Source: Candidatus Omnitrophica bacterium UBA6215
GTDB lineage: Bacteria > Omnitrophota > Gorgyraeia > Pluralincolimonadales > Pluralincolimonadaceae
Reading direction: 5' to 3'
Length of the DNA: 64,000 nt
NCBI GenBank assembly: GCA_002421665.1
Contig: DISH01000004.1
Location: 152,025-216,024 of the forward strand
Shown: positions 2,384-49,823 of the stretch, piece by piece
How positions within the stretch are numbered: the first letter of the stretch is position 1
How the letters are laid out: the number at the start of each line of letters is the position of its first letter
Position numbers and translations under genes: made by a program
The notes under the pieces: generated by a model
Databases searched by the model: none
The model's input: the letters and a program-made list of their open reading frames with translations, nothing else
Told to the model about the DNA's origin: nothing

Positions 2384-3457
2384 ATGACGATACTTGACGA
2401 TATTAACGGGATGAAGGGTGTAGATAAGTCGAACATGTTCGACTTGATAGTTAATTTTCCCGAACAGTGCGCTAGGGCATATTCGATAGGGGCGGATTTC
2501 CATGTGCCGCAGTCATACGTGGGCGCCGGATATAAGAATATAGTATTTTCAGGGCTCGGCGGATCCGCCATAGGCGCCGACCTGATGCGTTCATACCTTA
2601 TAGATGACATAAAGATACCTATATATGTAAGCAGGGACTATACGCTGCCGCGTTTTGTGGGTAAGGATACCCTGTTCCTCGCGTGCAGCTATTCGGGGGA
2701 TACCGAGGAGACCCTGTCTTCGTATGCCGAGGCAAAGGAGAAAGGCGCCAGGATAATTGTTATATCTTCAGGCGGCAAGCTCGAGGTCCTTGCCAAGGAG
2801 GACAAGATACCCGTGATATATATACCCAAGGGCCATCCGCCGAGGACGGCTTTGGGGTATTCATTCTTCAGTTGGCTGGACGTCTTTTATAAGATCGGTT
2901 TTATAAGCGACAGGGGCAAGGATGCCGAGGAAGCTATAGCCGATATGAAGGACCTCATGGACAGGGCTATAGGCCCCGGGGTTCCGGCCGACAGGAACGA
3001 GGCTAAGAAGATAGCCGGGCAGATATGCGGCAAATACGTAATAATATACGGAGCGAACAAACACCTGGATTCTGTAACGCTCAGGTGGAGGGGGCAGATA
3101 GAGGAGAATGCCAAGACGCTTGCATCGACCCACGTCTTCCCTGAGCTCAACCATAACGAGACCGTGGGCTGGGAAGGCCCGAAGGCGTTGCTTAAGGATT
3201 TTGCGGTGGTATTGCTGCGGGACGAAAGCGAGCACCCGCGCGTAACGAAAAGGATAGAGATAACCGGGGCCATGATAGGCAAAGATTCAAAGGTCATCGA
3301 GGTGCGCTCAAAAGGCAGGAACCTGCTTTCCAGGATGTTCAGCCTGATATATACCGGCGATTTCGTGAGCTATTACCTTGCCCTTCTTAACGGGATAGAC
3401 CCGACCCCCGTAGAGAGGATAGCTTCTCTCAAGAAGGAGCTGAGCAAGTTAAGATGA
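2384..3457 (+). CDS. bifunctional phosphoglucose/phosphomannose isomerase (SIS domain)
   Basis: 357 aa; SIS fold (VFSGLGGSAIGADL, LACSYSGDTEETL) and the C-terminal PGI/PMI-family domain. Confidence 0.8.
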   Translation: MTILDDINGMKGVDKSNMFDLIVNFPEQCARAYSIGADFHVPQSYVGAGYKNIVFSGLGGSAIGADLMRSYLIDDIKIPIYVSRDYTLPRFVGKDTLFLACSYSGDTEETLSSYAEAKEKGARIIVISSGGKLEVLAKEDKIPVIYIPKGHPPRTALGYSFFSWLDVFYKIGFISDRGKDAEEAIADMKDLMDRAIGPGVPADRNEAKKIAGQICGKYVIIYGANKHLDSVTLRWRGQIEENAKTLASTHVFPELNHNETVGWEGPKALLKDFAVVLLRDESEHPRVTKRIEITGAMIGKDSKVIEVRSKGRNLLSRMFSLIYTGDFVSYYLALLNGIDPTPVERIASLKKELSKLR

Positions 3458-4197
3458 AAGCGCTTATACTCGCCGCCGGATACGCTACAAGGCTGTATCC
3501 TCTTACAAAAGACAGGCCGAAGCCGCTGCTTCTGGTCGGCAAGAAGACCATAATGGATTATCTTATCCAGAAACTCGAGAATATCCCCGAGATAGATACG
3601 ATACACATCGTTACCAACGAGAAATTCTACGGGGTTTTTGAATGCTGGCTCAAGACCTGCAAATCAAAAAAGAAGATAGTCATAGATAACGACGGCAGTA
3701 CTACCAACGACAACAGGCTCGGGGCTATAGGCGACATAAAACTTGTCCTCGATAAGAGGCAGTTATTCGACGATATGGTAGTCCTCGCCGGGGACAACAT
3801 GTTTGATTGGGAGCTCAAGGCCTTTACCGATTTTGCGAAAGAGAAACCGGGTTCTTTTGCTTTGGGCGCTTACGATATAGGCGATAAGTCCAAGGCCGCG
3901 AATACCTACGGTGTCGTAAAGGTCGACGTGAACGGCGATCTGGAGGATTTTCTTGAGAAACCCAGCGACCCTCCGACGTCGCTTATCGCTACCGGCATTT
4001 ATTATTTCCCGCAGGATAAATTGAGCCTTATAGCGCAGTACCTTAAATTCGGGAACGAAAAAGACGCACCGGGACATTTTATACAATGGACAAGCAAGGA
4101 TAACGAGGTCAGGTGTTATGTTTTCAGGGGAATATGGTATGACATCGGGGACCTCGAGTCTTACAGGAAAGCTAATCTGGCTTTCCAGGACAAATAG
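3454..4197 (+). CDS. sugar-phosphate nucleotidyltransferase (NTP_transferase family)
   Basis: N-terminal [25 protein letters not shown] signature G-loop; 4 bp overlap with the upstream gene. Confidence 0.8.
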
Positions 4198-6628: not shown

Positions 6629-7555
6629 ATGGCGTTCATATCATCGAAACCGCTCTTCCAGAAGGCATATAAGGAAGGTTATGCGGTAGGAGCTTTCAAT
6701 ATTAACGACATGGAGATCCTCCAGGGTATAACGGAGGCTATAGCCGAGGAGAAAGCCCCGGTAATATTACAGGTGTCCGCTGGCGCTCGTAAATATGCCC
6801 GCCACCAGTACCTGATACACCTGGTCCAGGCCGCGATGGAGTGCACCGGTATAGACTGCGTCCTGCATCTTGACCACGGCGAGGACTTCGAGGTCTGCAA
6901 GGCCTGCGTCGACGGTGGTTTTTCGTCGGTCATGATCGACGGCTCGAAACATTCCTTCGAGGACAATATAAAGCTTACAAAGCAGGTTGTAGATTACGCT
7001 CATGCGAAGAACGTGCCTGTCGAGGCCGAACTCGGTAAACTTGCCGGTGTCGAGGACAATATCTCGGTTGCCGATAAGGATGCTATATATACCGATCCGG
7101 ACCAGGCGGTGGAATTTGTCAAGAAGACCGGATGCGATTCGCTGGCCGTTGCCATCGGCACGAGCCACGGCGCTTACAAGTTCAAGGGCGAGCCGAAGCT
7201 CGATTTCGAGCGTCTCGAGAAGATCAAGAACCTCCTTCCCGGGTTCCCGCTCGTGCTCCACGGCGCGTCATCGGCCCCGGCCGACCTCGTGAAGGTCTGC
7301 AACGATTACGGCGCGAAGATACCCGGAGCCAGGGGTGTCCCGGAAGAGATGATATCCAAGGCGACCAAGATGGGCGTTTGCAAGGTCAACATAGACACCG
7401 ACCTTCGCCTGGCAATGACCGGCGCCATAAGGAAAGTATTCGTGGAGAGCCCCGCTGAATTCGACCCGAGGAAATACCTGGGTCCCGCGCGCGATGCCAT
7501 CAAGCAGGTTGTTAAGAGGAAGATAGGGTTCCTCGGCTGCGCCGGCAAAGCTTAG
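6629..7555 (+). CDS. fba: class II fructose-bisphosphate aldolase
   Basis: 308 aa; YAVGAFNINDME, LHLDHG, GTSHGAYKF motifs. Confidence 0.92.
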   Translation: MAFISSKPLFQKAYKEGYAVGAFNINDMEILQGITEAIAEEKAPVILQVSAGARKYARHQYLIHLVQAAMECTGIDCVLHLDHGEDFEVCKACVDGGFSSVMIDGSKHSFEDNIKLTKQVVDYAHAKNVPVEAELGKLAGVEDNISVADKDAIYTDPDQAVEFVKKTGCDSLAVAIGTSHGAYKFKGEPKLDFERLEKIKNLLPGFPLVLHGASSAPADLVKVCNDYGAKIPGARGVPEEMISKATKMGVCKVNIDTDLRLAMTGAIRKVFVESPAEFDPRKYLGPARDAIKQVVKRKIGFLGCAGKA

Positions 7556-7594
7556 GGGACGTGCCACTTTGGGACGTGTCAAAAAGGGACACTC
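7555..7594 (+). repeat. REP-like 40 bp element, left copy flanking the RAYT gene
   Basis: GGGGACGTGCCACTTTGGGACGTGTCAAAAAGGGACACTC. Its reverse complement recurs at 8255-8294 with one mismatch, and related copies lie at 42619-42658 and 49764-49823. Confidence 0.85.
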
Positions 7595-7615
7595 CGCAAA
7601 GAAATAGCTGAAAGA

Positions 7616-7660: not shown

Positions 7661-8251
7661 ATGCCCAGGATAAAACGCGATATAGTAGACGGAGGTATCT
7701 ATCATATTCTAAACAGGGGTCATAATAAAGATAAAATATTTGCCGCCCCGGAAGATTACAATACGTTTAAGAAGATAATCGAAAGATATAAGGAAAGATT
7801 CTTCTTCGATCTTTATCATTATTGTATTATGCCTAATCATTTTCATCTCTTAATAAAAATAGCAAATGCTGAAGACATGTCCCGTTTGATGAAAGGGGTC
7901 TGCCAGAGCTACGCGAATTATTATAAAATGAAGTATGAACACATAGGCTATCTGTTCCAAAACAGGTATAAGAGTATTTTAATCGATGACGATTCGTACC
8001 TGCTTGAGTGTGCGAGGTATATTGAGAGAAACCCTGTGAGGGCTGAAATCGTTGAGATAATTTCAGATTACCGGTGGTCGAGTTACAATTATTATGCCAG
8101 CGGGTTTTGCGACAGCCTGATCACTGCTGATCCGTTATTTGGGACATTAGCTGATTCTACGACCACAAGAAGAAGCTCTTATGTTGAGTATGTATCAAAG
8201 CCCAGGCCTTACGAGGCGATTGTTGATGAGAAATTATCTTCTTTTAAATAG
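7661..8251 (+). CDS. REP-associated tyrosine transposase (RAYT; IS200/IS605-type Y1 HuH transposase)
   Basis: 196 aa; GIYHILNRGHN start, HuH motif PNHFHLLIK, C-terminal Tyr-rich region (YRWSSYNYY); flanked by inverted REP copies. Confidence 0.85.
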   Translation: MPRIKRDIVDGGIYHILNRGHNKDKIFAAPEDYNTFKKIIERYKERFFFDLYHYCIMPNHFHLLIKIANAEDMSRLMKGVCQSYANYYKMKYEHIGYLFQNRYKSILIDDDSYLLECARYIERNPVRAEIVEIISDYRWSSYNYYASGFCDSLITADPLFGTLADSTTTRRSSYVEYVSKPRPYEAIVDEKLSSFK

Positions 8252-8254
8252 TAG

Positions 8255-8294
8255 AGTGTCCCTTTTTGACACGTCCCAAAGTGACACGTCCCCT
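8255..8294 (-). repeat. REP-like 40 bp element, right copy in inverted orientation
   Basis: GAGTGTCCCTTTTTGACACGTCCCAAAGTGACACGTCCCC is the reverse complement of 7555-7594 with one mismatch; it abuts the lptG stop codon. Confidence 0.85.
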
Positions 8295-9384
8295 AGCTTC
8301 TGATTTTAGAGAGAAGGTGGATGCCGAGGGCTGCGAATGCAATATTAGCAGCCCAGGCTGCTATTAAGGGGGGCAGGAGGCCGCCTTTTCCGAGGGCGAG
8401 GGATACGGCGTTGGCCCCATAGAATACCACGGCTATGATCAGCGCGATGCCCATACTTGCCATCGCTTTGGACCTCGTTCTCTTGAGGGCGAAGGGGATG
8501 CCTATGAGCATAATGACCACGCTCGTGAAAGGTGCGGCAAGCTTGTAATGCAGGTCTACCAGGAGCTTCCTGGCCGTGGACTTGCTCTCAAGCGAAAGCA
8601 AATGTATGTAATCCCTCAACTGGGCATAATCCATAAAATCAGGCTGGGTCTGTTTCTTGAGAAGGCTCTCCGGGGTCTCATTGAAATCTATTAGCTTCGG
8701 GGTCCTGAATACCGCCGGCTTGCCGAGGACGTTTCCTTCCTTATCGAACCTGAAAGAATCCGCGCCGTAAAACCTCCACTCATTCCCGGTCCATTCCATG
8801 CGCTCGGCCGTGATCTTTCTCTTGAGGACCTGGTTGTTCGAGTGGACGAGTATGACGACGTCCTTCAGCGTTTTGGTCTTAAGATCGAACTCCCTGGCGT
8901 AGAAGAGCTTTCCGTCCCTGCCAAAGACCGTTATGTTATCGAGCCTATCCCCGCGTTCCGCGCGGTTCCTGTCGAAATACAGCTCCTTTACGGTATTGGC
9001 TGTAACAGCCGAATCAGGGACGACCTTGTCGTTGACAATGAACACGGCCAGGCTTATTGCGCAGCCGATCAGGAGAACGGGGCTGATTATCCTTATGGTA
9101 TTGATGCCGCCGGCCCTGAGCGCGATTATCTCGTTATGCCGGTTCAGGTTCGAGAAGAGGAATACGCATGCGAGAAGGACCGCGAACGGCGTAGTCTGGA
9201 CGAATATGAATGGCAGCGAGGCCAGATAGTAGGTCCGGACTATCTTAAAAGGTATATTCTGTTTTACCAGCGCGTCGAGGTGGCCAAGCAGGTCGCCTAT
9301 GATATAAAGGAACAGGAAGACGAACAGGCAGTAGAGGAACGGCCAGATGAAGCCCCTGGTTATATATTTGTCTATTATCTTCAT
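8293..9384 (-). CDS. lptG: LPS export ABC permease LptG (YjgP/YjgQ family)
   Basis: 363 aa, six-TM LptF/LptG architecture with a periplasmic beta-jellyroll insert; 4 bp overlap with the upstream paralog. Confidence 0.8.
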   Translation of the reverse strand: MKIIDKYITRGFIWPFLYCLFVFLFLYIIGDLLGHLDALVKQNIPFKIVRTYYLASLPFIFVQTTPFAVLLACVFLFSNLNRHNEIIALRAGGINTIRIISPVLLIGCAISLAVFIVNDKVVPDSAVTANTVKELYFDRNRAERGDRLDNITVFGRDGKLFYAREFDLKTKTLKDVVILVHSNNQVLKRKITAERMEWTGNEWRFYGADSFRFDKEGNVLGKPAVFRTPKLIDFNETPESLLKKQTQPDFMDYAQLRDYIHLLSLESKSTARKLLVDLHYKLAAPFTSVVIMLIGIPFALKRTRSKAMASMGIALIIAVVFYGANAVSLALGKGGLLPPLIAAWAANIAFAALGIHLLSKIRS

Positions 9385-34433: not shown

Positions 34434-35708
34434 GTGTGGACTAAATTTATTCGAGGTTTGCTATCGGAAAAAACAGACCGATATGTTTTTAATAGATGTT
34501 CCCGGGATGACAAGGATTATTCAAATTGCCGGGCAATAGACCTTTATGTTCATATACCTTTTTGTAAAGGTTCATGCCGGTATTGCCCCTATATAACCCA
34601 ACCATTCGATCTGAATTCATCGAAGCTTTACCGGGATGCTTTAGTTTCGGAACTGGGGCATTATGCGGACCTGCTAAAGGATAAGCCCGTCGGTTCCTTG
34701 TACATCGGCGGAGGCACCCCGACGTTAGATCTAAGTTTGGTCGGCGATTTGCTAAAGCACTTGAGACAAATAGTCACACCAAGCGGGCCGATTGCTATTG
34801 AAACGACCCCCAGCGATATATCCTGTTCCAAGATCGATGAATTGAAAAAGTTGGGCATCGATTACATAAGCCTGGGCGTCCAAAGTTTCAATCCCGGATA
34901 TCTGGCGTTGTTAGGGCGGAATTATGAAGCGGAAGACGCAGGAAAAGCGCTTAGCGAATTGATGGAGTCGGGCCTAAGCCTGGTCAACGCCGATATGATC
35001 TTCGCTTTTCCCGGTCAAACGCTGCGTGAATTCATGGAAGACCTGGGTAAGCTTATGCAATGGTCGCCTCACCAGGTGACATGTTACCCGCTCTTTACTT
35101 TCCCGTATTCTTCCGTTGGGCGGTTCATGAGGCTCAAGAGGCTAAAAATGCCCGATGTTTTTGTACGCAGGAAAATGTATTATGAAATGACCGGTTATTT
35201 TCAAAAGTGCGGTTATAAGCAAACATCCGTTTGGTCATTCACAAAGAACGAAAATAGGCACAATTATTCATCGGTGACCCGTGACCACTATCTGGGATTG
35301 GGGGTAGGAGCCGGTAGTTATACGGGGAAAGGGTTTTATTTCAATACATTCTCGACAAAAGAATATATGGACAAAGCGGCATACCGGCGTCCGACGGCGA
35401 TCAAGATGGATATCACCGAAAGGATGGAAAAGCTTTTCTGGCTTTACTGGCGTTTTTACGAAACGGAGATAAATGCGGTGCGTTACCATAGCCGTTTCAA
35501 CAACGGTATTGACGAGGATTTCGGCAGGATGCTGTGGACGGTCGAGAAGATGGGCATGCTTAGGTTGGACGGGGCTCGATCCAGGATATTGAACGAGCGG
35601 GGCGCTTTCTGGATACACTTATTGCAAAATTATTTCGCGCTCAATTACGTGAATAGGGTTTGGACCGCGGGATTAGCCGACCCCTGGCCCGAAAGAATAA
35701 GGTTATAA
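34434..35708 (+). CDS. HemN/HemW-like radical SAM protein (coproporphyrinogen-III oxidase family)
   Basis: CKGSCRYC radical-SAM CxxxCxxC motif, GGGTPT glycine-rich motif, HemN C-terminal domain; GTG start. Confidence 0.75.
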   Translation: MWTKFIRGLLSEKTDRYVFNRCSRDDKDYSNCRAIDLYVHIPFCKGSCRYCPYITQPFDLNSSKLYRDALVSELGHYADLLKDKPVGSLYIGGGTPTLDLSLVGDLLKHLRQIVTPSGPIAIETTPSDISCSKIDELKKLGIDYISLGVQSFNPGYLALLGRNYEAEDAGKALSELMESGLSLVNADMIFAFPGQTLREFMEDLGKLMQWSPHQVTCYPLFTFPYSSVGRFMRLKRLKMPDVFVRRKMYYEMTGYFQKCGYKQTSVWSFTKNENRHNYSSVTRDHYLGLGVGAGSYTGKGFYFNTFSTKEYMDKAAYRRPTAIKMDITERMEKLFWLYWRFYETEINAVRYHSRFNNGIDEDFGRMLWTVEKMGMLRLDGARSRILNERGAFWIHLLQNYFALNYVNRVWTAGLADPWPERIRL

Positions 35709-36604
35709 TGTTGAACAAACTTGCTTATTATGCGAAGTGGTACTATCTGTGCCGCATAAGGAACCGGAAAATACCTCTTAACAGTTCTCTTATTCTGACC
35801 GATCAATGTAATTTAAAATGTAAACATTGCACCGTATCCGGGCTGGGATACCCGGCGAGAAGCTTCCGGGAGGTTACTGGAGATGTCCGAAAATTATATG
35901 ACCTCGGGTCCAGGGTCCTGGTCATTACAGGCGGGGAGCCATACGTTTGGGCCGATAAGGAATATACGGTAGAAGACATCGTCCGATTTGCAAAAACGGT
36001 TGGATTCTTCCGCGTCGTCATCTGCACGAACGGGACTTATGACCTGCGGTCATCGGCGGATTATCTGTGGGTCAGCCTCGACGGTTTCAGCTTACAGCAT
36101 ACGAACTTGAGGGGGGATGTGTATGAACGGGTGGTGCGGAACATAGAACAGAGCCGGCACGGAAGTATATATATAAATTTCACCATCAGCCGTGAAAATC
36201 ATGATATATTCGAAGAAGCCGCCGAAGAGATATTGAAAATAAGGAATATACGCGGTATCTTATTTCATATTTTTACCCCTTATAAAGGTTCGGACCCGGA
36301 CTTGAAGCTCACTGCCGAAGAGAAGGACCGGGTTTTGGGCCGTTTGTTAAAAATAAAAAGAAAGCATCCTGTTAGGATATTCAATACGTTTGACGGATTA
36401 AGAGCGATGCGGTCTAAGGATTGGGACAGGCCCATCTGGGCAAGCATTGTCAGCAACCGGGGCCAGATCGGTCCGTGCTGCTGCCGAGAGGGCATATATG
36501 ACAAAGAAATATGTGAAGAATGCGGGTGCACTCCGGCAGTCGAAACATATGTTCTGCAGGAGGGGAAGGTCCTTGCCGGCATGGAAAATTTGAGGTTCAT
36601 TTAA
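35708..36604 (+). CDS. radical SAM protein with Cys-rich (SPASM-like) C-terminus
   Basis: CNLKCKHC motif; C-terminal CCCREG...CEECGC cluster; 1-nt TAATG overlap with the upstream radical-SAM gene. Confidence 0.7.
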   Translation: MLNKLAYYAKWYYLCRIRNRKIPLNSSLILTDQCNLKCKHCTVSGLGYPARSFREVTGDVRKLYDLGSRVLVITGGEPYVWADKEYTVEDIVRFAKTVGFFRVVICTNGTYDLRSSADYLWVSLDGFSLQHTNLRGDVYERVVRNIEQSRHGSIYINFTISRENHDIFEEAAEEILKIRNIRGILFHIFTPYKGSDPDLKLTAEEKDRVLGRLLKIKRKHPVRIFNTFDGLRAMRSKDWDRPIWASIVSNRGQIGPCCCREGIYDKEICEECGCTPAVETYVLQEGKVLAGMENLRFI

Positions 36605-37044
36605 TAATTAGGAAGGTAAGTATAAACTATTTTTGGAAGAGGTATAGCATATCATGAAGCGGGATGTCAAATTGATTTACATACGCACATTCGGCTGACC
36701 GATGGAAGCAGTATTATACGACTATTCTGACGTATCTGAGCAATATCTGGTAAGCGGAACTCGTTGAACTATTGAAGGTTAAGGAAGGCAACAGGGATTA
36801 ACAAGGATAAAACAGGATTTGGCAAAAGAAGGCGAGAAAAAAGTCTGAGTTTACAAAGTAAACTTAGCTAACGCATCAGAAATAAAATTCGATAGGTTAG
36901 AAAAGTTTATTAAGAGTAGAAATACTCCTGGGGTTTAATTACTCGAGAGAATGTAGGACATAATTTGGGGTGGATAAGTTCGTATCAGCAATGCATAAAC
37001 TAAATAGAGTCAGTATAGGTATATGGGAATGAGAGGGAGTAGAA

Positions 37045-39135
37045 ATGTATTTAAAAAGCCTAAAAATAATTAATTTTAGAAAATTTGGAGAATTGAACAA
37101 TGTTGTGGAATTTGTAGGCTCAAAAGGTGCCCAACCAAAAACTGAGGGAATTAACATAGCTTTATCTACAACTTTAATTGTGGGGAAAAACAATTCTGGT
37201 AAAACAACAGTAACAGAAGCGCTAAAGAGACTAATTCACGACAGAAAATTTAAAGCAAATGACTTTAATTTCATGTATTTAAACACGCTGCTTGAGGAAT
37301 ACAAAAAAGGCAAATTTGAACGTTTTCCAAAACTCGAGTTTGAAATCACTGTAAGGATTGATTTTAGCAGCGATTCCGACTTGGTTACAAATATTGCTCC
37401 ATTCATGAGTATAGAAGGCGTGGCGTCAGCAGGCAAGAAAAGCGATTTTCAAGTTCTCATGAAATATGAAATAAAAGAAGAGACAAGTTTTGAGGACGAA
37501 GTCCTGTCTATTATTGGAAAGTATAAAGATGAAACATTATTGTTTCGGAAATTTTTGGAACTCATTACCAATACTGAGTTCGAATTTAATTACTATAATT
37601 CAGAAGATGTGTTGATAGAAGATAATAAATTCAAGATTAGTGATTTGTTGGAAATCAAAGTAATTAATGCTAACAAAGATATTCATGGGAACTGTTTGTC
37701 TAATATTTTTAATAGGATAATTAAGCTGCTTTGCACGAGCGGGAACAAACCGGTTGTTCCTGATGGTATAGCTTCCGAGATAGATAAAATTAATAAGACG
37801 ATAACAAAAAAAGTGTCAGCGCCGCACGCTACGACTGTCAACAGAGCATTGAGTAAAATTGAGTCAAGTGACCACATGGAAGTTAACTTAAGGCCAGATT
37901 TAACTTTTGATAATATTCTTTCAACAATTATCCGATATGAATATAAAGAAGGGAAATTTCATATCCCCGAAGGACAGTTTGGTCTTGGGTACTCGAACCT
38001 CATGATGATTATTGGAGAACTGATTGAGTACATTGAGAAGTATCCTAAGCAGGAGCACCACAGTAAGATTAATTTGATTTGCATAGAAGAGCCGGAAGCT
38101 TTCATGCACTGTCAGATGCAGGAATTATTCATAAAGCATATTAATGATGCTGTTGATTTTCTCTTGAAGGATAGAGAGAAAGAAATTAACAGTCAGCTAA
38201 TAGTGACGACGCATTCCCCTCATATCTTAAATAGCAAGATTCATAGTGGAAATACTTTTGACAATATAAGTTATAGTACCATTGTCGATGATTTCGCAAA
38301 TGTTGTTAATCTGAATGATGTCAACGTAATGGGGGATAAGTCTGCTGATGAGGGAAAAGGTGATGTGGCGGCAGAAAAGAAAACCGCTGATGACCTTAAG
38401 TTCCTAAAGAAACACATCAAATACAAAGTGTCGGAGCTGTTCTTTTCTGATGCGGTAATCTTTGTTGAAGGAGTGACAGAAGAAACACTGCTATCTTATT
38501 ATATTGACAAAGACAAAACATTAAATCGTTATTACATTTCAGTCTTTAACATTAATGGCTCACACGGTCTTGTTTATCACCCACTGATAAAGCTTCTTAA
38601 AGTTCCCAATCTAATCATAACCGACTTTGATATAAGAAGAGAAGAGAAAGAAAAAGATGACTGCCTTCAAATCAAAGACCTAAAAGATAGGGAGACTACA
38701 AATAAAACCATTGCCAAATATAATCCTGACAAAGAAAAAATCGGAAATCTTAAAGGATATTTCGAAGATGAAAACATATATGTAATATTTCAGCGTGAAG
38801 CCATCGAAGGATATTATGCGACTAGCTTTGAGGAAGCATTTATTCTCACTAACTATAATAACGACATACTGAATAACGCTTTATCTGTTGTAAAACCTGG
38901 AGTCTATAAAAAAATCAGTGGGGAGCCAATAGATAGAAATAGGCTCAAGGACGCATCCTATAAGTTGCAAAGCAGCCTTTCTAAAAGCAAAAGCGACTTT
39001 TCAAATGAGCTGCTATACGAAATCGTAGTTAGCGAAGATGCAGGAGCCATACCGAAACCGCCGAAATACATAACAGACGGGTTGGTGTGGTTGACTCGTT
39101 CCGTTAAGAAGCAAGCAAAAGGGGGGAATAAATAA
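37045..39135 (+). CDS. gajA: OLD-family ATP-dependent endonuclease (ABC ATPase + Toprim), GajA-like
   Basis: 696 aa; KSLKIINFRKF start, Walker A GKNNSGKTT, Walker B/D-loop LICIEEPEAFMH, H-loop QLIVTTHSPHIL, Toprim motifs VIFVEGVTEETLL and LIITDFDIRRE; GAGGGAG RBS. Confidence 0.85.
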   Translation: MYLKSLKIINFRKFGELNNVVEFVGSKGAQPKTEGINIALSTTLIVGKNNSGKTTVTEALKRLIHDRKFKANDFNFMYLNTLLEEYKKGKFERFPKLEFEITVRIDFSSDSDLVTNIAPFMSIEGVASAGKKSDFQVLMKYEIKEETSFEDEVLSIIGKYKDETLLFRKFLELITNTEFEFNYYNSEDVLIEDNKFKISDLLEIKVINANKDIHGNCLSNIFNRIIKLLCTSGNKPVVPDGIASEIDKINKTITKKVSAPHATTVNRALSKIESSDHMEVNLRPDLTFDNILSTIIRYEYKEGKFHIPEGQFGLGYSNLMMIIGELIEYIEKYPKQEHHSKINLICIEEPEAFMHCQMQELFIKHINDAVDFLLKDREKEINSQLIVTTHSPHILNSKIHSGNTFDNISYSTIVDDFANVVNLNDVNVMGDKSADEGKGDVAAEKKTADDLKFLKKHIKYKVSELFFSDAVIFVEGVTEETLLSYYIDKDKTLNRYYISVFNINGSHGLVYHPLIKLLKVPNLIITDFDIRREEKEKDDCLQIKDLKDRETTNKTIAKYNPDKEKIGNLKGYFEDENIYVIFQREAIEGYYATSFEEAFILTNYNNDILNNALSVVKPGVYKKISGEPIDRNRLKDASYKLQSSLSKSKSDFSNELLYEIVVSEDAGAIPKPPKYITDGLVWLTRSVKKQAKGGNK

Positions 39136-41507
39136 TGAGCCTATCAAAAATATCCCCTACTTCCGAGAAGGAAGAGCTCGCTGTTCAAGACCTCGTTAAT
39201 TCATATATTGACAGGAACGAAAGCCTTGTTTTTAGCGCAGGAGCAGGAGCAGGAAAGACTTATGCCTTAACTGAGAGCTTAAAACATATCGTAAAAGTGC
39301 ACGGCGACAGGCTGGTTAGGCATAACCAAAAAATAATATGTATTACATATACGAATGTCGCAACAAATGAAATCAAAGAGCGTCTTGGCAACTCAGACCT
39401 TGTCAAGGTTTCAACTATTCATGAAAGAGTTTGGGATTTAATTAATGATTATCAAAAGGAGCTTATTAAGATACACGTTGAAAAAATTCAGGAAGATCTT
39501 GTTAAGTTGCAGTTTGACTTGTATGACAGTAACGAGGAAAAAGAAGAAAGCTTGTATAAGGCTTACCGGGGGCTTTCAGATAGCGAAAAAGCTGAATTTA
39601 AAAGCATGATGATTGCTAAAAAGAAAGAGTTTTACAGATTTTACGATAAGCCTGCTAAAGAATTTAAGTTTGCAATGGGAGATTTTATTGGTGGATATGC
39701 GAGCCTTTTGAGCAATGTTGCAAATTTTAAGAAAACAGTAAGTATAATTTATAAGATTGAGAATTATAAAGAGTGTCTGGGGAAAATCAATGAAGGACAT
39801 GCGAAATACGCTGAGGTTAAATATGACGACAGATATAATTTTGACGTCCTTCATCGAATGATAATAAGTCACGATACGCTTCTTGAGTATGCTCTTAAGA
39901 TGATTAAGACTTATGATTTGTTGAAGCGTGTTATATTTGATAGTTATCCGTACATTCTCATAGACGAATACCAAGACACTAATCAAAACGTAGTTGAAAT
40001 AATGAAACTTATTGAAGATCACGCAAAGAGCATTAAGCGCAAACTTTTTGTGGGTTATTTCGGTGATTCAGCACAAAACATCTACGAAGACGGAGTAGGG
40101 AGTGGCCTTGTCAATATTCATCCAGAATTAAAGGGCGTGAATAAACAATTCAATCGCAGGTCTCATTCAGAAATAATCGATGTCATAAATAAAATCAGGA
40201 ATGATGAAATAAAACAGAAGTCCATATTTGAGGATTGTACTGGCGGAAGTATTGAGTTTTACGCCGGAACGAATGAAGTTAAACATCTATTCATCGAAGA
40301 ATACAGAAAAAAGTGGAATATCAACTCAGAAAATAAACTTCATTGTTTGGTTTTACTGAATAAATTTGTCGCAGAATTCAATGGCTTTCCCGATATATAC
40401 AGATGTTTTGCAGATACTTCTTATTACAAAATAAACTATGACCGCCTAAACAATGAAATACTCAGCAATGATCTATCCAAGCTGGGAGACATCCCAAACC
40501 TATTCTATAGAGTTCTCAAATTCATTGACAACTTAAATAACCTTAATACTTCTGTTGCCAACATAGTCGATAAGGAAACCTATTCCAGAATGACGTTTCT
40601 CAAAATAAAAGAGCTTACCACTATATTCAAGAACCTCAAAGGTGTTACTTTAGGAGAGTATATAAAAGACATATTTGAAAAATACAGCAATTCTGACAAT
40701 AACTATTATAAAAAAGTCATTCAAAAACTGATTGGCATTGAATATTACTCATATCACGATTTTACAAATTACCTCCTTGACGAATTGTTTTTCAATATAG
40801 GAAACGGAAGGTGGGAAGAATTCAAGCTTACGGTTGTTGAATTGACACAGAATGATTTATCTGCAAAGACAGACGAAAAGGAATTTAAGCCATTTAAGCT
40901 AAAATTGGACAATTTTCTTTCTGGAGAATATTTTTCTTATCTCGACATTCAGGAAGTAAACGCCTTTAAACAAAGGCTCGTTGAGTTCATAAAAGAACAA
41001 AAAATAACAAGCATAAAAACCAAAGATATGGACTCTTTCATGGAAAAATTGGACCAAACATTTCAAAATGAAATAATAGCCCTAATAGATAAAGATGAGG
41101 TTGAAGTCGCTAAAACAAAACTCGATGAACTCCTAAACATAAAATTAGACCAGTGGAAAATCTGGTACGATTTCATAAACAATAAACAAAAATCCGAGAT
41201 TGAGTACCATACCTATCATGGAACAAAAGGCGCCGAATACGATAACGTCATAATCATTATGGAAAACGATTTTGGGCGAATGAATAAAGATAAATTCTCA
41301 TCTTTTTTCAAGCATTACAAAAATCCTGATTCTTTACTTGAAGAAGACAGAGTTAAGTTTAATAATACAAAAAACTTGTTATACGTATCTTGTTCCCGCG
41401 CAATTAAAAACTTAAGGATTTTATATCTTGACGATATATCTGAATTTCGAGAAGGAATAGAACATATTTTTGGAACAGTAAACCCTTATAAACCAAACTT
41501 AATCTAA
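39135..41507 (+). CDS. gajB: UvrD-like superfamily 1 helicase, GajB-like
   Basis: 790 aa; Walker A AGAGAGKTY, motif II YILIDEYQDTNQ, motif III FGDSAQNIYE, motif VI-like YHTYHGTKGAEYDNVIII; start overlaps the gajA-like stop (TAATG). Confidence 0.85.
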   Translation: MSLSKISPTSEKEELAVQDLVNSYIDRNESLVFSAGAGAGKTYALTESLKHIVKVHGDRLVRHNQKIICITYTNVATNEIKERLGNSDLVKVSTIHERVWDLINDYQKELIKIHVEKIQEDLVKLQFDLYDSNEEKEESLYKAYRGLSDSEKAEFKSMMIAKKKEFYRFYDKPAKEFKFAMGDFIGGYASLLSNVANFKKTVSIIYKIENYKECLGKINEGHAKYAEVKYDDRYNFDVLHRMIISHDTLLEYALKMIKTYDLLKRVIFDSYPYILIDEYQDTNQNVVEIMKLIEDHAKSIKRKLFVGYFGDSAQNIYEDGVGSGLVNIHPELKGVNKQFNRRSHSEIIDVINKIRNDEIKQKSIFEDCTGGSIEFYAGTNEVKHLFIEEYRKKWNINSENKLHCLVLLNKFVAEFNGFPDIYRCFADTSYYKINYDRLNNEILSNDLSKLGDIPNLFYRVLKFIDNLNNLNTSVANIVDKETYSRMTFLKIKELTTIFKNLKGVTLGEYIKDIFEKYSNSDNNYYKKVIQKLIGIEYYSYHDFTNYLLDELFFNIGNGRWEEFKLTVVELTQNDLSAKTDEKEFKPFKLKLDNFLSGEYFSYLDIQEVNAFKQRLVEFIKEQKITSIKTKDMDSFMEKLDQTFQNEIIALIDKDEVEVAKTKLDELLNIKLDQWKIWYDFINNKQKSEIEYHTYHGTKGAEYDNVIIIMENDFGRMNKDKFSSFFKHYKNPDSLLEEDRVKFNNTKNLLYVSCSRAIKNLRILYLDDISEFREGIEHIFGTVNPYKPNLI

Positions 41508-41540
41508 AGGAGATGCCCATGGGCGGTTTTAAAAAAGGAT

Positions 41541-41894
41541 TTGGACGGCAGCGAAGAGCAATGGCGATATGAAAGATTTATCGAGATAATATTTGAAGCA
41601 GATAAAAAGTGTTTAGAACAGCATATAGAGGAACGAAGACTCAAAGAACAGGCGATAGATAACCAAATCAGAAAGGTTGATGCAAAACATTTTCAGAAAT
41701 GCGCGCAGTGGTCAGGCAAAAAATACAACCTAACGCAAACAGCGAGAATTTTAAGGGTGCATCGGCAGACGTTATATCATTGGATTAAGAAGGGTTGGTG
41801 CAAACCGAAACGTGATTACAGGAATTATCCTGTTTTTACAGTTTTAGACATTGAAAACCTGATGAAGTGGAGAAACACGATAAAATCGGGATGA
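41541..41894 (+). CDS. small HTH_17 (AlpA/excisionase/MerR-type) DNA-binding protein; TTG start
   Basis: C-terminal helix-turn-helix NLTQTARILRVHRQTLYHWIKKGW; AT-rich codon usage like the island; only a TTG start is available in frame. Confidence 0.5.
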   Translation: MDGSEEQWRYERFIEIIFEADKKCLEQHIEERRLKEQAIDNQIRKVDAKHFQKCAQWSGKKYNLTQTARILRVHRQTLYHWIKKGWCKPKRDYRNYPVFTVLDIENLMKWRNTIKSG

Positions 41895-41981
41895 AAAAGC
41901 ATCAAAAACGCCTTTTAGTCGTATACATTCATCTACTTAGACAGTTTTAGACACTTGGGCGTAATATCATAAGGCACTAGT

Positions 41982-44051
41982 ATGAAAGAAGATAAGAAAA
42001 AAATTTACCTTCGCAGTTTTGGATGCCAGATGAACTTCCGTGATTCCGAAGAGATCGCCGGGCTCATGATGGAAAAGGGCTGGGAGCTTACGGATTCCCC
42101 GGAAGAAGCCGATGCCGCTATATTCAATACGTGCGCCGTGCGCAAGCACGCGGAGGACCGCGCGATCAGCAATGTCGGGGCGCTTGCACCTTTCAAAAAG
42201 AAACGTCCCCGGCTGGTGATAGGCGTTGTCGGCTGCATGGCCAAGGCTCATGGCAGGAATATCATCGACAGGGTACCGATAGTGGATTTTATCGCCGGGC
42301 CGGCAAATATCTATGACATCCCGGCGGCGGTTGACGCTATCATGGCGCGGAGGAAAGACCCGGTCATCTCGACGGACAAGGTCTCGCGTCCGTATATCGG
42401 AAATATCGCCTACCATAATCCCGGCATAAGCGCGCTGGTTACTATCATGGAAGGGTGTAATAACTTCTGCTCGTATTGCATCGTGCCTTATGTCAGGGGC
42501 CGTGAAGTCGGAAGGCCCGCGGATGACATAATAGACGAGATAAAGGCGCTCGCCGATAAAGGGTACAAAGAAGTGACCTTGCTGGGGCAAAATGTTAATT
42601 CATACGCGGATAAGAGCGGAGTGTCCCTAAATGACACGTCCCAAAGTGGCACGTCCCCTTTTACGCGGTTGCTGGAGAGGATCAATGGGATAGAGGGGAT
42701 AGAGCGAGTCCGCTTCCTTACCAGCCACCCGAAGGACGCAAGCGAGGCGCTCTTCAAGGCGATGAGGGACCTGCCGAAGGTATGCGAACATCTCCATTTG
42801 CCCTTGCAGTCGGGTTCTGATAAAATATTAAAGTCGATGAACAGGGGCTATACAGCCTCGGAATACCTGAAGAAAGTCGAACTGCTGCGCAAGTATGTGG
42901 CGGATTGCGCTCTGACAACGGATATAATAGTCGGGTACCCGGGTGAATCGGATGAGGATTTTCGCATGACCGAAAAGGTGATGCGGGAGGCCGGGTTCAA
43001 TTCGGCATTTATATTCAAATACTCTCCGCGCCCTCCGGCTAAGGCGAGCGGGTTCGATGATGATGTGCCGAAGAAGGTAAAAGAGGAGCGCAACCAGGCG
43101 TTGCTCAGGTTAAGGGATAAGATGTCGAGTGCACTCGACAGGGAATTCATAGGCGGTGAGACCGAGGTCCTTGTGGAACAGATATGCAGAAAGGAAAAGC
43201 ATAAAGTGTCCGGACGCAACAGGCAGAACATCAAGGTTGTCTTTGAAGGCGGCAGAGCGCTTATAGGAGCCATAAAAAAGGTGAAGGTATCTTCCGTTGT
43301 CGGCCATACGCTAGCGGGAACGGCGCTGCTGGCGCTATTGGCGGCCGGGTTGCCTTTGATGCCCGCCGCGGCGGAGACCATAGACGAATATTTCGTGAGC
43401 GGCGATTACGAGAATACCGTCAGGGAAGGCGTAAAGCTTGTGCAATCATACAAGGAGAAGGATAAGCTTTATTACATGATCGGCACAAGTCTCAATAAAC
43501 TGGGCCGCTATGACCTCGCCAGGAAGAATTTCAATATACTTATGGATACGGCCCCAAAGAGCAGGTTTGCGCCGTTGGCCCAATTGGGTATAGCCGACAG
43601 TTACTACCTGAGCTCGGACTACAAGAATGCCAGGGCCTGCTATGAAAAATATCTTTCAAAGTACCCGAAATCGGAGGGGGGAGCGGTCGCTTATTTCAGG
43701 CTGGCAAAATGCGCCCAAAAAGAAGGTAACTGGCAGTCGGCGAGGAATTATTACCAGAAAGTAAAGAGCGAATACCCGATGAGTTTTGAAGCTCAGACGG
43801 CCTCGGATGCGCTCAGGGACGAGATACTTTTCTTTACGGTACAGGTCGGCTCATTCAATAAGAAGGCAAATGCCCTCAGGTTATGCGATGAACTTGTCAA
43901 GAAGGGTTATGACGCCTCTATTGTGAAATCGAGCGGTGACGCGGAAGAATCTTATAAGGTAAGGGTCGGCAGGCTCGGCGACAGGGATTCGGCGGAAGCG
44001 CTGGCCAAGAAATTGAGGGCCGAAGGCCTTCCAACGAAAGTCCTTCCGTAA
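41982..44051 (+). CDS. miaB: tRNA-i6A37 methylthiotransferase MiaB with unusual C-terminal TM-TPR-SPOR extension (or in-frame fused/nested second gene from ~43281)
   Basis: MTTase N-domain, radical-SAM CNNFCSYC motif and TRAM domain occupy residues ~1-440; the frame then continues through a hydrophobic helix (LAGTALLALLAAGLPLMPAAA), TPR repeats and a SPOR domain (FTVQVGSF...YKVRVGRLGD) to 44051. An in-frame REP insert lies at 42619-42658. Confidence 0.8.
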   Translation: MKEDKKKIYLRSFGCQMNFRDSEEIAGLMMEKGWELTDSPEEADAAIFNTCAVRKHAEDRAISNVGALAPFKKKRPRLVIGVVGCMAKAHGRNIIDRVPIVDFIAGPANIYDIPAAVDAIMARRKDPVISTDKVSRPYIGNIAYHNPGISALVTIMEGCNNFCSYCIVPYVRGREVGRPADDIIDEIKALADKGYKEVTLLGQNVNSYADKSGVSLNDTSQSGTSPFTRLLERINGIEGIERVRFLTSHPKDASEALFKAMRDLPKVCEHLHLPLQSGSDKILKSMNRGYTASEYLKKVELLRKYVADCALTTDIIVGYPGESDEDFRMTEKVMREAGFNSAFIFKYSPRPPAKASGFDDDVPKKVKEERNQALLRLRDKMSSALDREFIGGETEVLVEQICRKEKHKVSGRNRQNIKVVFEGGRALIGAIKKVKVSSVVGHTLAGTALLALLAAGLPLMPAAAETIDEYFVSGDYENTVREGVKLVQSYKEKDKLYYMIGTSLNKLGRYDLARKNFNILMDTAPKSRFAPLAQLGIADSYYLSSDYKNARACYEKYLSKYPKSEGGAVAYFRLAKCAQKEGNWQSARNYYQKVKSEYPMSFEAQTASDALRDEILFFTVQVGSFNKKANALRLCDELVKKGYDASIVKSSGDAEESYKVRVGRLGDRDSAEALAKKLRAEGLPTKVLP
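42619..42658 (-). repeat. REP-like 40 bp element embedded in-frame in miaB
   Basis: GAGTGTCCCTAAATGACACGTCCCAAAGTGGCACGTCCCC, same family as 8255-8294; translated as VSLNDTSQSGTSP inside the MiaB loop between NSY and FTRLL. Confidence 0.8.
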
Positions 44052-44054
44052 TTT

Positions 44055-44972
44055 ATGGCTGACAGGATAATCTTTATCGTAGGCCCCACCGCAATAGGCA
44101 AGACCGGCTTGTCTTTTGAGCTGGCCCGTATCATAGACTGCGAGATAATCTCCTGTGATTCAATGCAGGTCTATAAGAGGATGGATATCGGGACGTCGAA
44201 ACCCGCCGCGATGCTGCTTAATGCGCTGCCCCACCACCTGATAAATGTAGTCGAGCCCTCCGAAGAATTTTCCGTGGCTCAATACCGCGAGCTGGCAGTT
44301 AAGGCGATCGAGGGCATAATATCAAGGAAGAAGACGCCGCTGGTGGTCGGCGGAAGCGGCCTTTACGCGAAGGTGCTTATAGACGGGATATTCGAAGCGC
44401 CGGTTACCGACAGGCGGCTCAGGGAGTCCCTGCAGGAAGAGGCAGAGGAGTTCGGCCCGGAAGCCCTGCACAAGCGGCTGGCCGGGGTGGACCCGCAGGC
44501 TGCGGCTAAGATACACGTGAATGACCTTCGAAGGATAATAAGGGCCATCGAGGTATACGAGAAAGCGAAAGAGCCTATATCCGAGCTGCAGAAAAAGACC
44601 TCGGGCCTGGGGGAGAGATATGATGTCAGGATATTCGGCCTTACTATGGAACGAGCGGCGTTATACAGGAAGATAGATGAAAGGGTGGATCTCATGTTCT
44701 CCGGAGGGCTGGTAGGCGAAGCCGAGGCACTTATGGCCGGAAAGCTGAGCCTGACGGCTTCGCAGGCGCTCGGATATAAGGAGATATTCGGCTATCTCGC
44801 CGGCGAATACGGTCTGGAAGAAGCCAAGAGGCTTGTAAAGAGGGACACCCGCCGTTTCGCGAAACGCCAGCTTACATGGTTCAGGGGGGACGAGCGCGTG
44901 GAATGGATCGAGCTTGATGAAAATTTTGATACGGAGGCGGTCGCAAGGGATATATGGAAAAAGCTCTCTTAG
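44055..44972 (+). CDS. miaA: tRNA dimethylallyltransferase
   Basis: [11 protein letters not shown]-loop, SCDSMQVY motif; 305 aa. Confidence 0.93.
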
Positions 44973-49763: not shown

Positions 49764-49823
49764 GGGGACGTGTCACTTTGGGACACTCTACTACAGTAAC
49801 CTGTCCCAAAGTGACACGTCCCC
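49764..49823. repeat. 60 bp REP-family palindrome (hairpin) in the dnaK-dnaJ spacer
   Basis: GGGGACGTGTCACTTTGGGACA-CTCTACTACAGTAACC-TGTCCCAAAGTGACACGTCCCC; 22 bp perfect arms; same family as the RAYT-flanking REPs. Confidence 0.85.

Follow-up and report, generated by a model that had tools for sequence, protein, structure and literature searches.

Repetitive extragenic palindromic (REP) sequences are by name elements of the space between genes, and a copy within the reading frame of a tRNA-modifying enzyme raises the question of where it came from, how the gene kept its frame, and whether the insert serves its host. We addressed this question for miaB in a 64,000-nucleotide stretch of Candidatus Omnitrophica bacterium UBA6215 (GCA_002421665.1, contig DISH01000004.1, positions 152,025 to 216,024), hereafter called the window. 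The original prediction, made from the sequence alone, had placed a REP copy inside miaB without a break in the frame and had read it as a Ser/Thr-rich segment between the NSY and FTRLL motifs, and both points were borne out. The quoted 40-mer, GAGTGTCCCTAAATGACACGTCCCAAAGTGGCACGTCCCC, was found at 42619-42658 on the forward strand within the intact open reading frame (ORF) at 41982-44051, where it translates as ...SGVSLNDTSQSGTSP... between NVNSY and FTRLL; its reading in the context of the ORF is ...NSYADKSGVSLNDTSQSGTSPFTRLL..., and the peptide spanning the insert contains ...NSYADKSGVSLNDTSQSGTSPFTR.... We consider it very probable that a selfish GTAG-type REP, associated with a REP-associated tyrosine transposase (RAYT), was inserted or retained in a permissive loop of MiaB and is translated there with the enzyme left intact. 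The gene and the insert are as follows.

41982 to 44051, forward strand: host gene MiaB, an ORF of 689 amino acids with a UPF0004, radical SAM and TRAM region, then a hydrophobic segment, TPR repeats and a SPOR domain
42612 to 42659, forward strand: in-frame REP copy in miaB, 48 nucleotides, 16 codons, peptide KSGVSLNDTSQSGTSP

A REP of a RAYT-associated family

Judged by its domain architecture and equivalog score, the 689-residue ORF is MiaB, the tRNA i6A37 methylthiotransferase. Pfam matches to UPF0004 and Radical_SAM were accompanied by a score of 452.9 bits against the MiaB equivalog TIGR01574 of NCBIfam (cut-off 355.3), and the solved MiaB of Bacteroides uniformis (PDB 7MJZ/7MJV) matched residues 3-440 with E = 5e-104. 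The radical-SAM cysteines C159, C163 and C166 and the cluster cysteines C51 and C85 were invariant in an alignment of 28 MiaBs. The C-terminal 240 residues comprise the hydrophobic segment, TPR repeats and SPOR domain, and this MiaB-TPR-SPOR fusion was common to about 25 related proteins of Candidatus Omnitrophota (P0001-P0026).

The REP itself proved larger than first thought: the presence of a copy stood, while the proposed size of 40 bp and 13 to 15 residues gave way to a unit of 48 nucleotides and 16 residues. Its limits, 42612-42659, were agreed by two routes, similarity to other copies (this is the span that aligns with the copy at 8247-8294) and comparison with an empty site. The unit consists of four A-rich nucleotides, a GCGG tag, the head AGTGTCCC and two CACGTCCC modules. 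Over 44 nucleotides it was 93% identical to a copy flanking the RAYT gene (7554-7597), and the 40-mer had a 40-nucleotide match with three mismatches at 7555-7594 on the reverse strand, for which 100 shuffles gave a chance expectation of 0. The heptamer TACGCGG, present on both sides of the insert (42604 and 42662), was considered as a target-site duplication and regarded as chance, because it would imply a 58-nucleotide insertion that removed the invariant Phe227 and broke the frame.

Repeat finding and an nhmmer profile gave five members of the family in the window, and their positions, together with that of the RAYT gene, are listed here.

7553 to 7599, reverse strand: REP copy 5' of the RAYT gene, GCGG tag, three modules, the closest relative of the miaB copy
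7661 to 8251, forward strand: RAYT gene, encoding a REP-associated IS200-like Y1 (HUH) transposase of 196 amino acids, Pfam Y1_Tnp
8247 to 8295, forward strand: REP copy 3' of the RAYT gene, GTAG tag, three modules, inverted relative to 7553-7599
42612 to 42660, forward strand: REP copy in miaB as called by repeat finding and nhmmer, a family member
49764 to 49823, both strands: inverted REP doublet (REPIN-like), back-to-back in the dnaK-dnaJ spacer, forming a 22-bp hairpin

The window carries a REPtron arrangement, in which inverted REPs of one family stand on either side of a gene for an IS200-like Y1 transposase. The two arms (7553-7594 and 8254-8295; 42 nucleotides, 98% complementary) lie 659 nucleotides apart around the ORF at 7661-8251, whose product matched Y1_Tnp (PF01797) with E = 1.9e-15 and 57.5 bits, above the cut-off of 23. 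An H-F-H occupies residues 60-62 of this protein (MPNHFHLL), and there are tyrosines in QNRY and in ARYIERNPVRA, the one in the YIxxNP motif being the putative catalytic residue; a search of PDB sequences with the protein gave no match at E < 0.01. Full-length orthologs with 57-71% identity were found between inverted REPs in four other genomes (L029, L058, L059 and L036). Since inverted pairs of the family enclose a RAYT gene in the window and in these four genomes, the miaB repeat is by its sequence a genuine REP in the strict, RAYT-associated sense, and its assignment to a REP family is upheld by four other copies in the window, two of them flanking the RAYT gene.

A scan with a 21-nucleotide core, covering one genome per species, found 64 REP stretches in about 15 Omnitrophota metagenome-assembled genomes (MAGs), some of them labelled Planctomycetia, and nhmmer found 110 copies in the related MAGs. 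Parsed copies followed a modular plan of four A-rich bases, a tag, the head AGTGTCCC and between one and three additional units that end in CACGTCCC, with an inter-module unit of 15 nucleotides, equal to five codons; L030 contains a longer tandem run of modules. The position of the tag was conserved and its sequence variable (GTGG in 42, GCGG in 21, GTAG in four and GCAG in one of 68 parsed copies). Many of the copies were tight inverted doublets, A/T-rich flanks adjoined the copies generally, and most of those other than the intragenic miaB copy were intergenic or at gene ends, an intragenic position thus characterizing that copy rather than the family. A search of the whole window against Rfam at gathering thresholds gave no family.

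The suggestion that the insert creates a stable hairpin within a coding mRNA did not hold. As RNA, the single miaB copy folded with -12.1 kcal/mol (z = -1.58), and 16 of 200 shuffles folded at least as well; in a 101-nucleotide context the z-score was +0.91, and folding as DNA was equally weak. The copy at 8247 reached an RNA z-score of -2.7, and the only strong hairpin among those folded was that of the dnaK-dnaJ doublet (-46.4 kcal/mol, z = -10.7). The stem of a single unit is 5 bp only (GTGTC/GACAC), and GTAG families with 5-bp stems were accepted in the survey by Di Nocera, De Gregorio and Rocco (2013, BMC Genomics 14:522; PMC3733652). The dnaK-dnaJ spacer held a REP-derived hairpin in every clade member examined (window 49764-49823; L001 at about 7520-7570; L147; L149), even in L001, whose miaB site is empty. 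Each hairpin had diverged toward the REP variant of its own lineage, and this copy is an old one with a stable place.

The empty site and the MiaB loop

In the alignment of 28 MiaBs, the closest lineage (P0013, 94% amino acid identity, on contig L001, which is syntenic with the window from miaB to dnaJ) had only "ED" between NVNSY and F, where the window had "AD" followed by 16 residues. The insertion relative to this lineage thus lies exactly at the REP, as an alignment of orthologs had been expected to show. At the DNA level the junctions read TAC GCG GAT / 48 nucleotides / TTT ACG in the window and TAC GAA GAT / TTT CCC in L001, and a second empty site, ...ACGGAT / TTCACG, was found in L069. 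This difference between filled and empty sites bears out the proposal that the element moves or once moved, insofar as past mobility is concerned. The same residues were missing from canonical MiaBs as well as from the sister lineage, so that REP-free orthologs with a similar linker, which would have made the resemblance to a REP coincidental, were not what the comparison revealed. The insert is 16 residues against the sister lineage but only about 7 to 9 residues longer than the canonical MiaB linker.

With the 48 nucleotides removed, the miaB genes of the window and L001 aligned without gaps over 588 codons, and the REP is therefore the only indel between them. Substitution rates over these codons (dN = 0.035, dS = 0.53, omega 0.065) indicate that miaB with its REP is intact and under strong purifying selection. 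The copy is absent from orthologs, keeps the frame and sits in a constrained gene, and by these marks, read from sequence comparison, it is an in-frame selfish repeat. An identical protein was present on 14 contigs from NCBI, JGI, ENA and Logan, all five members of its 90% cluster carried the insert, and strain L067 (98%), from another sample, had a REP identical to that of the window. Given the 14 contigs from four repositories and the identical REP of L067, an assembly artefact is very unlikely. Two 673-residue members of the 90% cluster (689 minus 16) were considered as an insert-free allele and rejected, as they merely start at Met17 and contain the insert.

Residues 1-445 were modeled with AlphaFold2 from an alignment of 52 sequences, with a mean predicted local distance difference test score (pLDDT) of 90.5. 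The sole segment below 50 was residues 213-220, inside the insert (211-226), which was modeled as coil between a strand at 197-201 and a helix at 226-235. The surface loop that a structural model had been expected to confirm is accordingly supported as a predicted disordered, variable loop, its place at the surface being suggested only by the predicted disorder and the variation in length. In 57 of 75 Omnitrophota miaB loci the loop has 8 or 9 residues, and it has 11 in solved MiaB; in this clade it ranges from 2 residues in the empty sites up to 49 elsewhere. A metagenome scan for close miaB relatives contributed four useful loci (L067-L070), the remaining, distant MiaBs defining only the normal linker length.

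Other lineages also carried inserts at this place. The same REP family, in the same orientation and with its 3' end abutting the Phe codon, occupied the loop in L002, L148 and L147: the L002 copy (from a protein of 78% amino acid identity) was identical to that of the window at 43 of 48 nucleotides and had an additional TTTGCA, the L148 copy had two modules, and the L147 copy contained a perfect 13-bp palindrome including GTAG. Different palindromic inserts were found at the same loop in L149/L150, L151, L070, L152 and L153. Among the seven insert sequences read, at least five elements were clearly unrelated to one another, and independent insertions do happen there; those of L153 and L070, built on GGGAC/GTCC motifs, may by their sequence be distant variants of the REP family. 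In a neighbor-joining MiaB tree, lineages with an empty site ("xD") were interleaved with filled ones. This occupation of one loop by various palindromic inserts in the relatives is the more interesting point than the window copy.

Two of these elements merit description in their own right. L149 (10634-10780) and L150 (10640-10735) carry the same element in opposite orientations (score 123 to the reverse complement, 42 on the same strand), and the L149 copy is enclosed by a second inverted repeat. The opposite orientations could have arisen by inversion in place or by insertions made separately. The loop insert of L151, CCCTCTCCCCAAAGGGGAGAGGG, has a second copy elsewhere in the gene, so that one miaB holds two in-frame copies (about 3300-3430 and 3641-3706) of a CCCTCTCCCC...GGGGAGAGGG element in two different loops, with the peptides SPHPGPLPGGERGE and SPHPYPLPKGERGE.

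Origin of the insert

We propose that the beta-to-alpha loop after the GQNVNSY motif in the radical-SAM domain received, or retained, a selfish GTAG-type REP associated with a RAYT. The frame was kept because the unit is 48 nucleotides long and free of stops in the frame used, and the REP would be translated as a 16-residue, Ser/Thr-rich segment, predicted to be disordered, in an enzyme predicted to stay intact. Y1 transposases of the IS200/IS605 type excise seamlessly. The exactness of the empty site and the lack of any duplicated target agree with the seamless way in which such enzymes cut and paste single strands, and mobilization of the REP on single-stranded DNA by the Y1 transposase would explain gain or loss without duplication. 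The insert may be neutral or nearly so, and may persist because a loop that varies from 2 to 49 residues in the clade, and that holds several unrelated palindromic elements, is unusually permissive. We lean toward a gain in the lineage of the window after its split from L001, rather than a seamless loss in L001.

Several observations weigh against this proposal. L002, with only 78% amino acid identity, has the same type of REP at the same codon and in the same orientation, and the miaB copies of the window and L002 share an AAAT spacer where the RAYT-flanking copies have TTTTT, which hints at common descent and a loss in L001. Within the barrel, the loop comes after the end of a strand, on the side of the active site. 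In addition, the sole NCBIfam match of the RAYT ORF, NF047646 (REP_Tyr_transpos), scored 74.6 bits, just below its curated cut-off of 80.

The first two of these points would be accounted for by a single ancient insertion in the ancestor of the fusion clade, followed by module gain and loss in place and by precise RAYT-style excision in L001, P0007/L069, P0010 and P0015, a history that we hold to be possible but doubtful. Position, orientation and 3' junction (...GTCCCC(T/A) abutting TTT) are alike in window/L067, L002, L147 and L148, the common spacer of the window and L002 copies agrees with inheritance, changes in module number are frame-neutral at a module length of 15 nucleotides, and seamless excision is a property of IS200/IS605-type Y1 transposases. 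However, at least four independent exact deletions would be needed on the neighbor-joining tree. Moreover, the window and L002 copies were identical at 43 of 48 positions (90%), compared to 61.5% at flanking third codon positions, and an old neutral loop should differ far more; the unrelated elements at the site also show that independent insertions occur.

That insertion is targeted, with the DNA of the loop (GAY/TTT after AAT TCN TAY) or its local structure acting as a preferred target beyond mere tolerance, seems quite unlikely to us. One and the same pair of codons encloses at least five palindromic elements that are clearly unrelated, including one present in both orientations, and REP copies are generally found beside A/T-rich flanks, as a target preference would lead one to expect. 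Different element families are, however, unlikely to share one target, the 5' junction varies between lineages, and copies in other genes (a helicase, GlpK and GspK, described below) have unrelated sequence around them. Survival of inserts in a permissive loop accounts for the pattern with no need of targeting.

Very unlikely, in our judgment, is a co-option of the insert as a functional peptide or as an RNA or DNA element, for instance as a hairpin with a regulatory role, a site bound by RAYT or gyrase, a site of recombination or a regulatory loop rich in Ser and Thr. Conservation between the window and L002 is higher for the REP (90%) than for neutral flanking sites, a Phe of the spacer is replaced by Asn in both miaB copies, and divergence from L067 drops from 4.9% on one side of the REP to 0.2% on the other, precisely at the element, all of which could point to a function. 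Yet the closest lineage and three others have no insert at all, the inserts are unrelated in sequence and peptide across lineages, and the segment, predicted to be disordered, showed no significant RNA structure and no Rfam family; recent insertion from a conserved master copy would explain the conservation equally well. Finally, a coincidental resemblance or an assembly artefact, conceivable a priori only, given that repeats are known to confuse metagenome assemblers, is made extremely improbable by the 93% identity over 44 nucleotides to a RAYT-flanking copy with no chance matches expected, by the lack of the 16 residues in the sister lineage and in canonical MiaBs, and by the recurrence of the protein and of its REP across sources.

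Beyond the preferred reading of a selfish REP in a permissive loop, we considered a broader one, which we think unlikely, in which the MiaB loop of this Omnitrophota clade is a landing pad that RAYT-type and several other palindromic elements enter and leave seamlessly, without breaking the frame and in either orientation, with REP traffic as a regular mechanism of loop evolution, and possibly of local recombination, in the phylum. If this were true, the 15-nucleotide modules would be a frame-neutral source of loop-length variation in MiaB, the UvrD/AddA-like helicase, GlpK and GspK.

Further in-frame copies, surroundings of miaB and known systems

The same REP family occurred in frame inside genes for a UvrD/AddA-like helicase, glycerol kinase and GspK of other Omnitrophota. 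The helicase-nuclease (L004 1152-4331, 1060 amino acids) contained three in-frame copies, one between DEFQDT and GDDDQS, that is, helicase motifs II and III (IGDVSLGDVSKRDRSP), and an inverted doublet in the UvrD_C domain (MGTCGLGTCQKGT...GVSQSDTSP); both sites fell within single Pfam domain matches. In the glycerol kinase gene (L063 5591-5660) the FGGY_N match spanned the insert, and a further copy lay in a gene for a GspK-like type II secretion protein (L045 1617-1643). The copy at L012 738-766 is probably also in frame, its frame being stop-free for 8 kb (2666 codons), with unrelated domains, and running off both ends of the stretch. Three reading frames of the element were used in host genes: GVSxxDTSP, GDVSLxD and GTCHxGT. 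The copies of L019, L025, L054, L055, L026, L003, L028 and L011 were examined as intragenic candidates and counted as 5' untranslated or intergenic, because they lie 5-100 nucleotides from an upstream stop or in frames without domains. At L041 897-955 and L047 154-215, an inverted doublet stands at the 5' end of a gene for a phosphodiesterase/sulfatase-like lipoprotein; the Met encoded by the REP (MGTCHFGT...) could be the start codon just ahead of the lipobox, and the REP might supply the N terminus.

The surroundings of miaB showed features of their own. Directly 5' of the gene lies a low-GC island (36600-41980; GC 0.32-0.40, compared to 0.50-0.55 around it) with a Gabija defense system, comprising GajA (37045-39135, PADLOC E = 5.5e-200) and GajB (39135-41507, E = 2.2e-262), and with a MerR/HTH_17-like ORF of 117 amino acids (41541-41894). 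It is bordered by an ORF of 314 amino acids (35660-36604) with weak PADLOC matches to prokaryotic viperins (E = 2.4e-9), which may be a generic radical-SAM protein. The 5' end of miaB (about 41982-42030 in the window; L067 1-1400; L151 434-3023) has the look of a hotspot for integration: L067 matched the window at about 99% identity downstream but was unrelated upstream of about 42020, with a gene for a large serine recombinase in place of the Gabija island and a different MiaB N terminus (P0122), L151 had a MerR helix-turn-helix gene and a large serine recombinase gene abutting miaB, and other relatives had a methyltransferase gene there. Over 42038-44834, the window and L067 differed at 27 positions in 42038-42590 (4.9%) and at five in 42700-44834 (0.2%). 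The change in divergence, between 42590 and 42672, brackets the REP and may mark a coincident recombination breakpoint, a single case that may itself be coincidence. At the other end of the gene (43300-44051), no stop codon divides the MiaB of this clade from the hydrophobic segment, which resembles a signal peptide, or from the TPR repeats and peptidoglycan-binding SPOR domain behind it, an odd pairing of a cytoplasmic tRNA enzyme with an envelope-type module; a separate TPR-SPOR protein made from an internal GTG start is conceivable.

As it stands, the locus offers a clean, well-controlled natural case of a transposase-associated REP that is predicted to be translated inside an intact housekeeping enzyme, with an exact empty site in the sister lineage, and it adds an uncultured phylum to those with intragenic REPs. 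Because the loop has been occupied repeatedly, it is a concrete system for asking whether target choice or survivorship in permissive loops is at work, and strain typing in Omnitrophota metagenomes could use the states of this one site (empty, single, doublet, inverted) as markers. Annotators of Omnitrophota proteins should bear in mind that unusual peptides rich in Ser/Thr, or of the Gly-Thr-Cys-His kind, may come from REPs. No description of REPs or RAYTs for Omnitrophota was found in the literature searched.

In the REPtron and REPIN-RAYT systems of Pseudomonas and E. coli (Nunvar et al. 2010; Bertels and Rainey 2011), the doublet (REPIN) is reportedly considered the mobile unit and singlets are said to be decayed remnants. 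The Omnitrophota family resembles these systems in its single-copy Y1 transposase gene between inverted REPs and in its many inverted doublets folding into long hairpins. It differs in that the Omnitrophota singlet departs from the empty site by exactly its own length, and in a head tag that is mostly GTGG or GCGG instead of GTAG.

The view that an intragenic REP is unusual, REPs being extragenic by definition, has to be given up, since translated intragenic GTAG REPs have been catalogued (PMC3733652) and the Rickettsia palindromic elements (RPEs) are a classic case. The intragenic REPs listed by Di Nocera et al. (PMC3733652) come from several species and are of both the GTAG and the CGTC kind; some RAYT-associated GTAG repeats were in frame in known genes, singles and dimers encoding roughly 10-30 amino acids. 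Their hosts were often repair genes (UvrD/REP helicases) and RNA-related genes (tRNA synthetases, a pseudouridine synthase), intragenic copies were most abundant in Opitutus terrae, of the PVC superphylum, and REPs lay at about the same site in recB of two Xanthomonas species; MiaB was not found in the supplementary tables of that study. Like those REPs, the present ones are short, RAYT-associated and in frame, and the Omnitrophota family too is found in a UvrD/AddA-like helicase. Unlike them, they belong to the phylum Omnitrophota and are modular (a head with one to three further 15-nucleotide CACGTCCC units), with a 5-bp stem per single unit, and across a clade one loop is occupied by several unrelated elements, which is more than the one shared site reported in that survey.

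The same authors linked intragenic REPs to the RPEs of Ogata et al. (2000, Science 290:347). In the passages of PMC3733652 and PMC3184786 that deal with them, RPEs are described as selfish palindromes that lie in frame in conserved genes and are translated, are thought to form surface loops and leave function in place, with a length of about 105-146 bp for RPE-1; the short units of Rickettsia bear a CGTC tag and lack a transposase of their own (PMC3733652). The miaB copy is likewise a selfish palindromic repeat in frame in a conserved gene, and differs from RPEs in being 48 nucleotides long and GTAG-type, with a RAYT in the same genome. In-frame selfish palindromic repeats are thus already known, and what is new here is the phylum, the clear empty-site control and a notable hotspot at one and the same loop.

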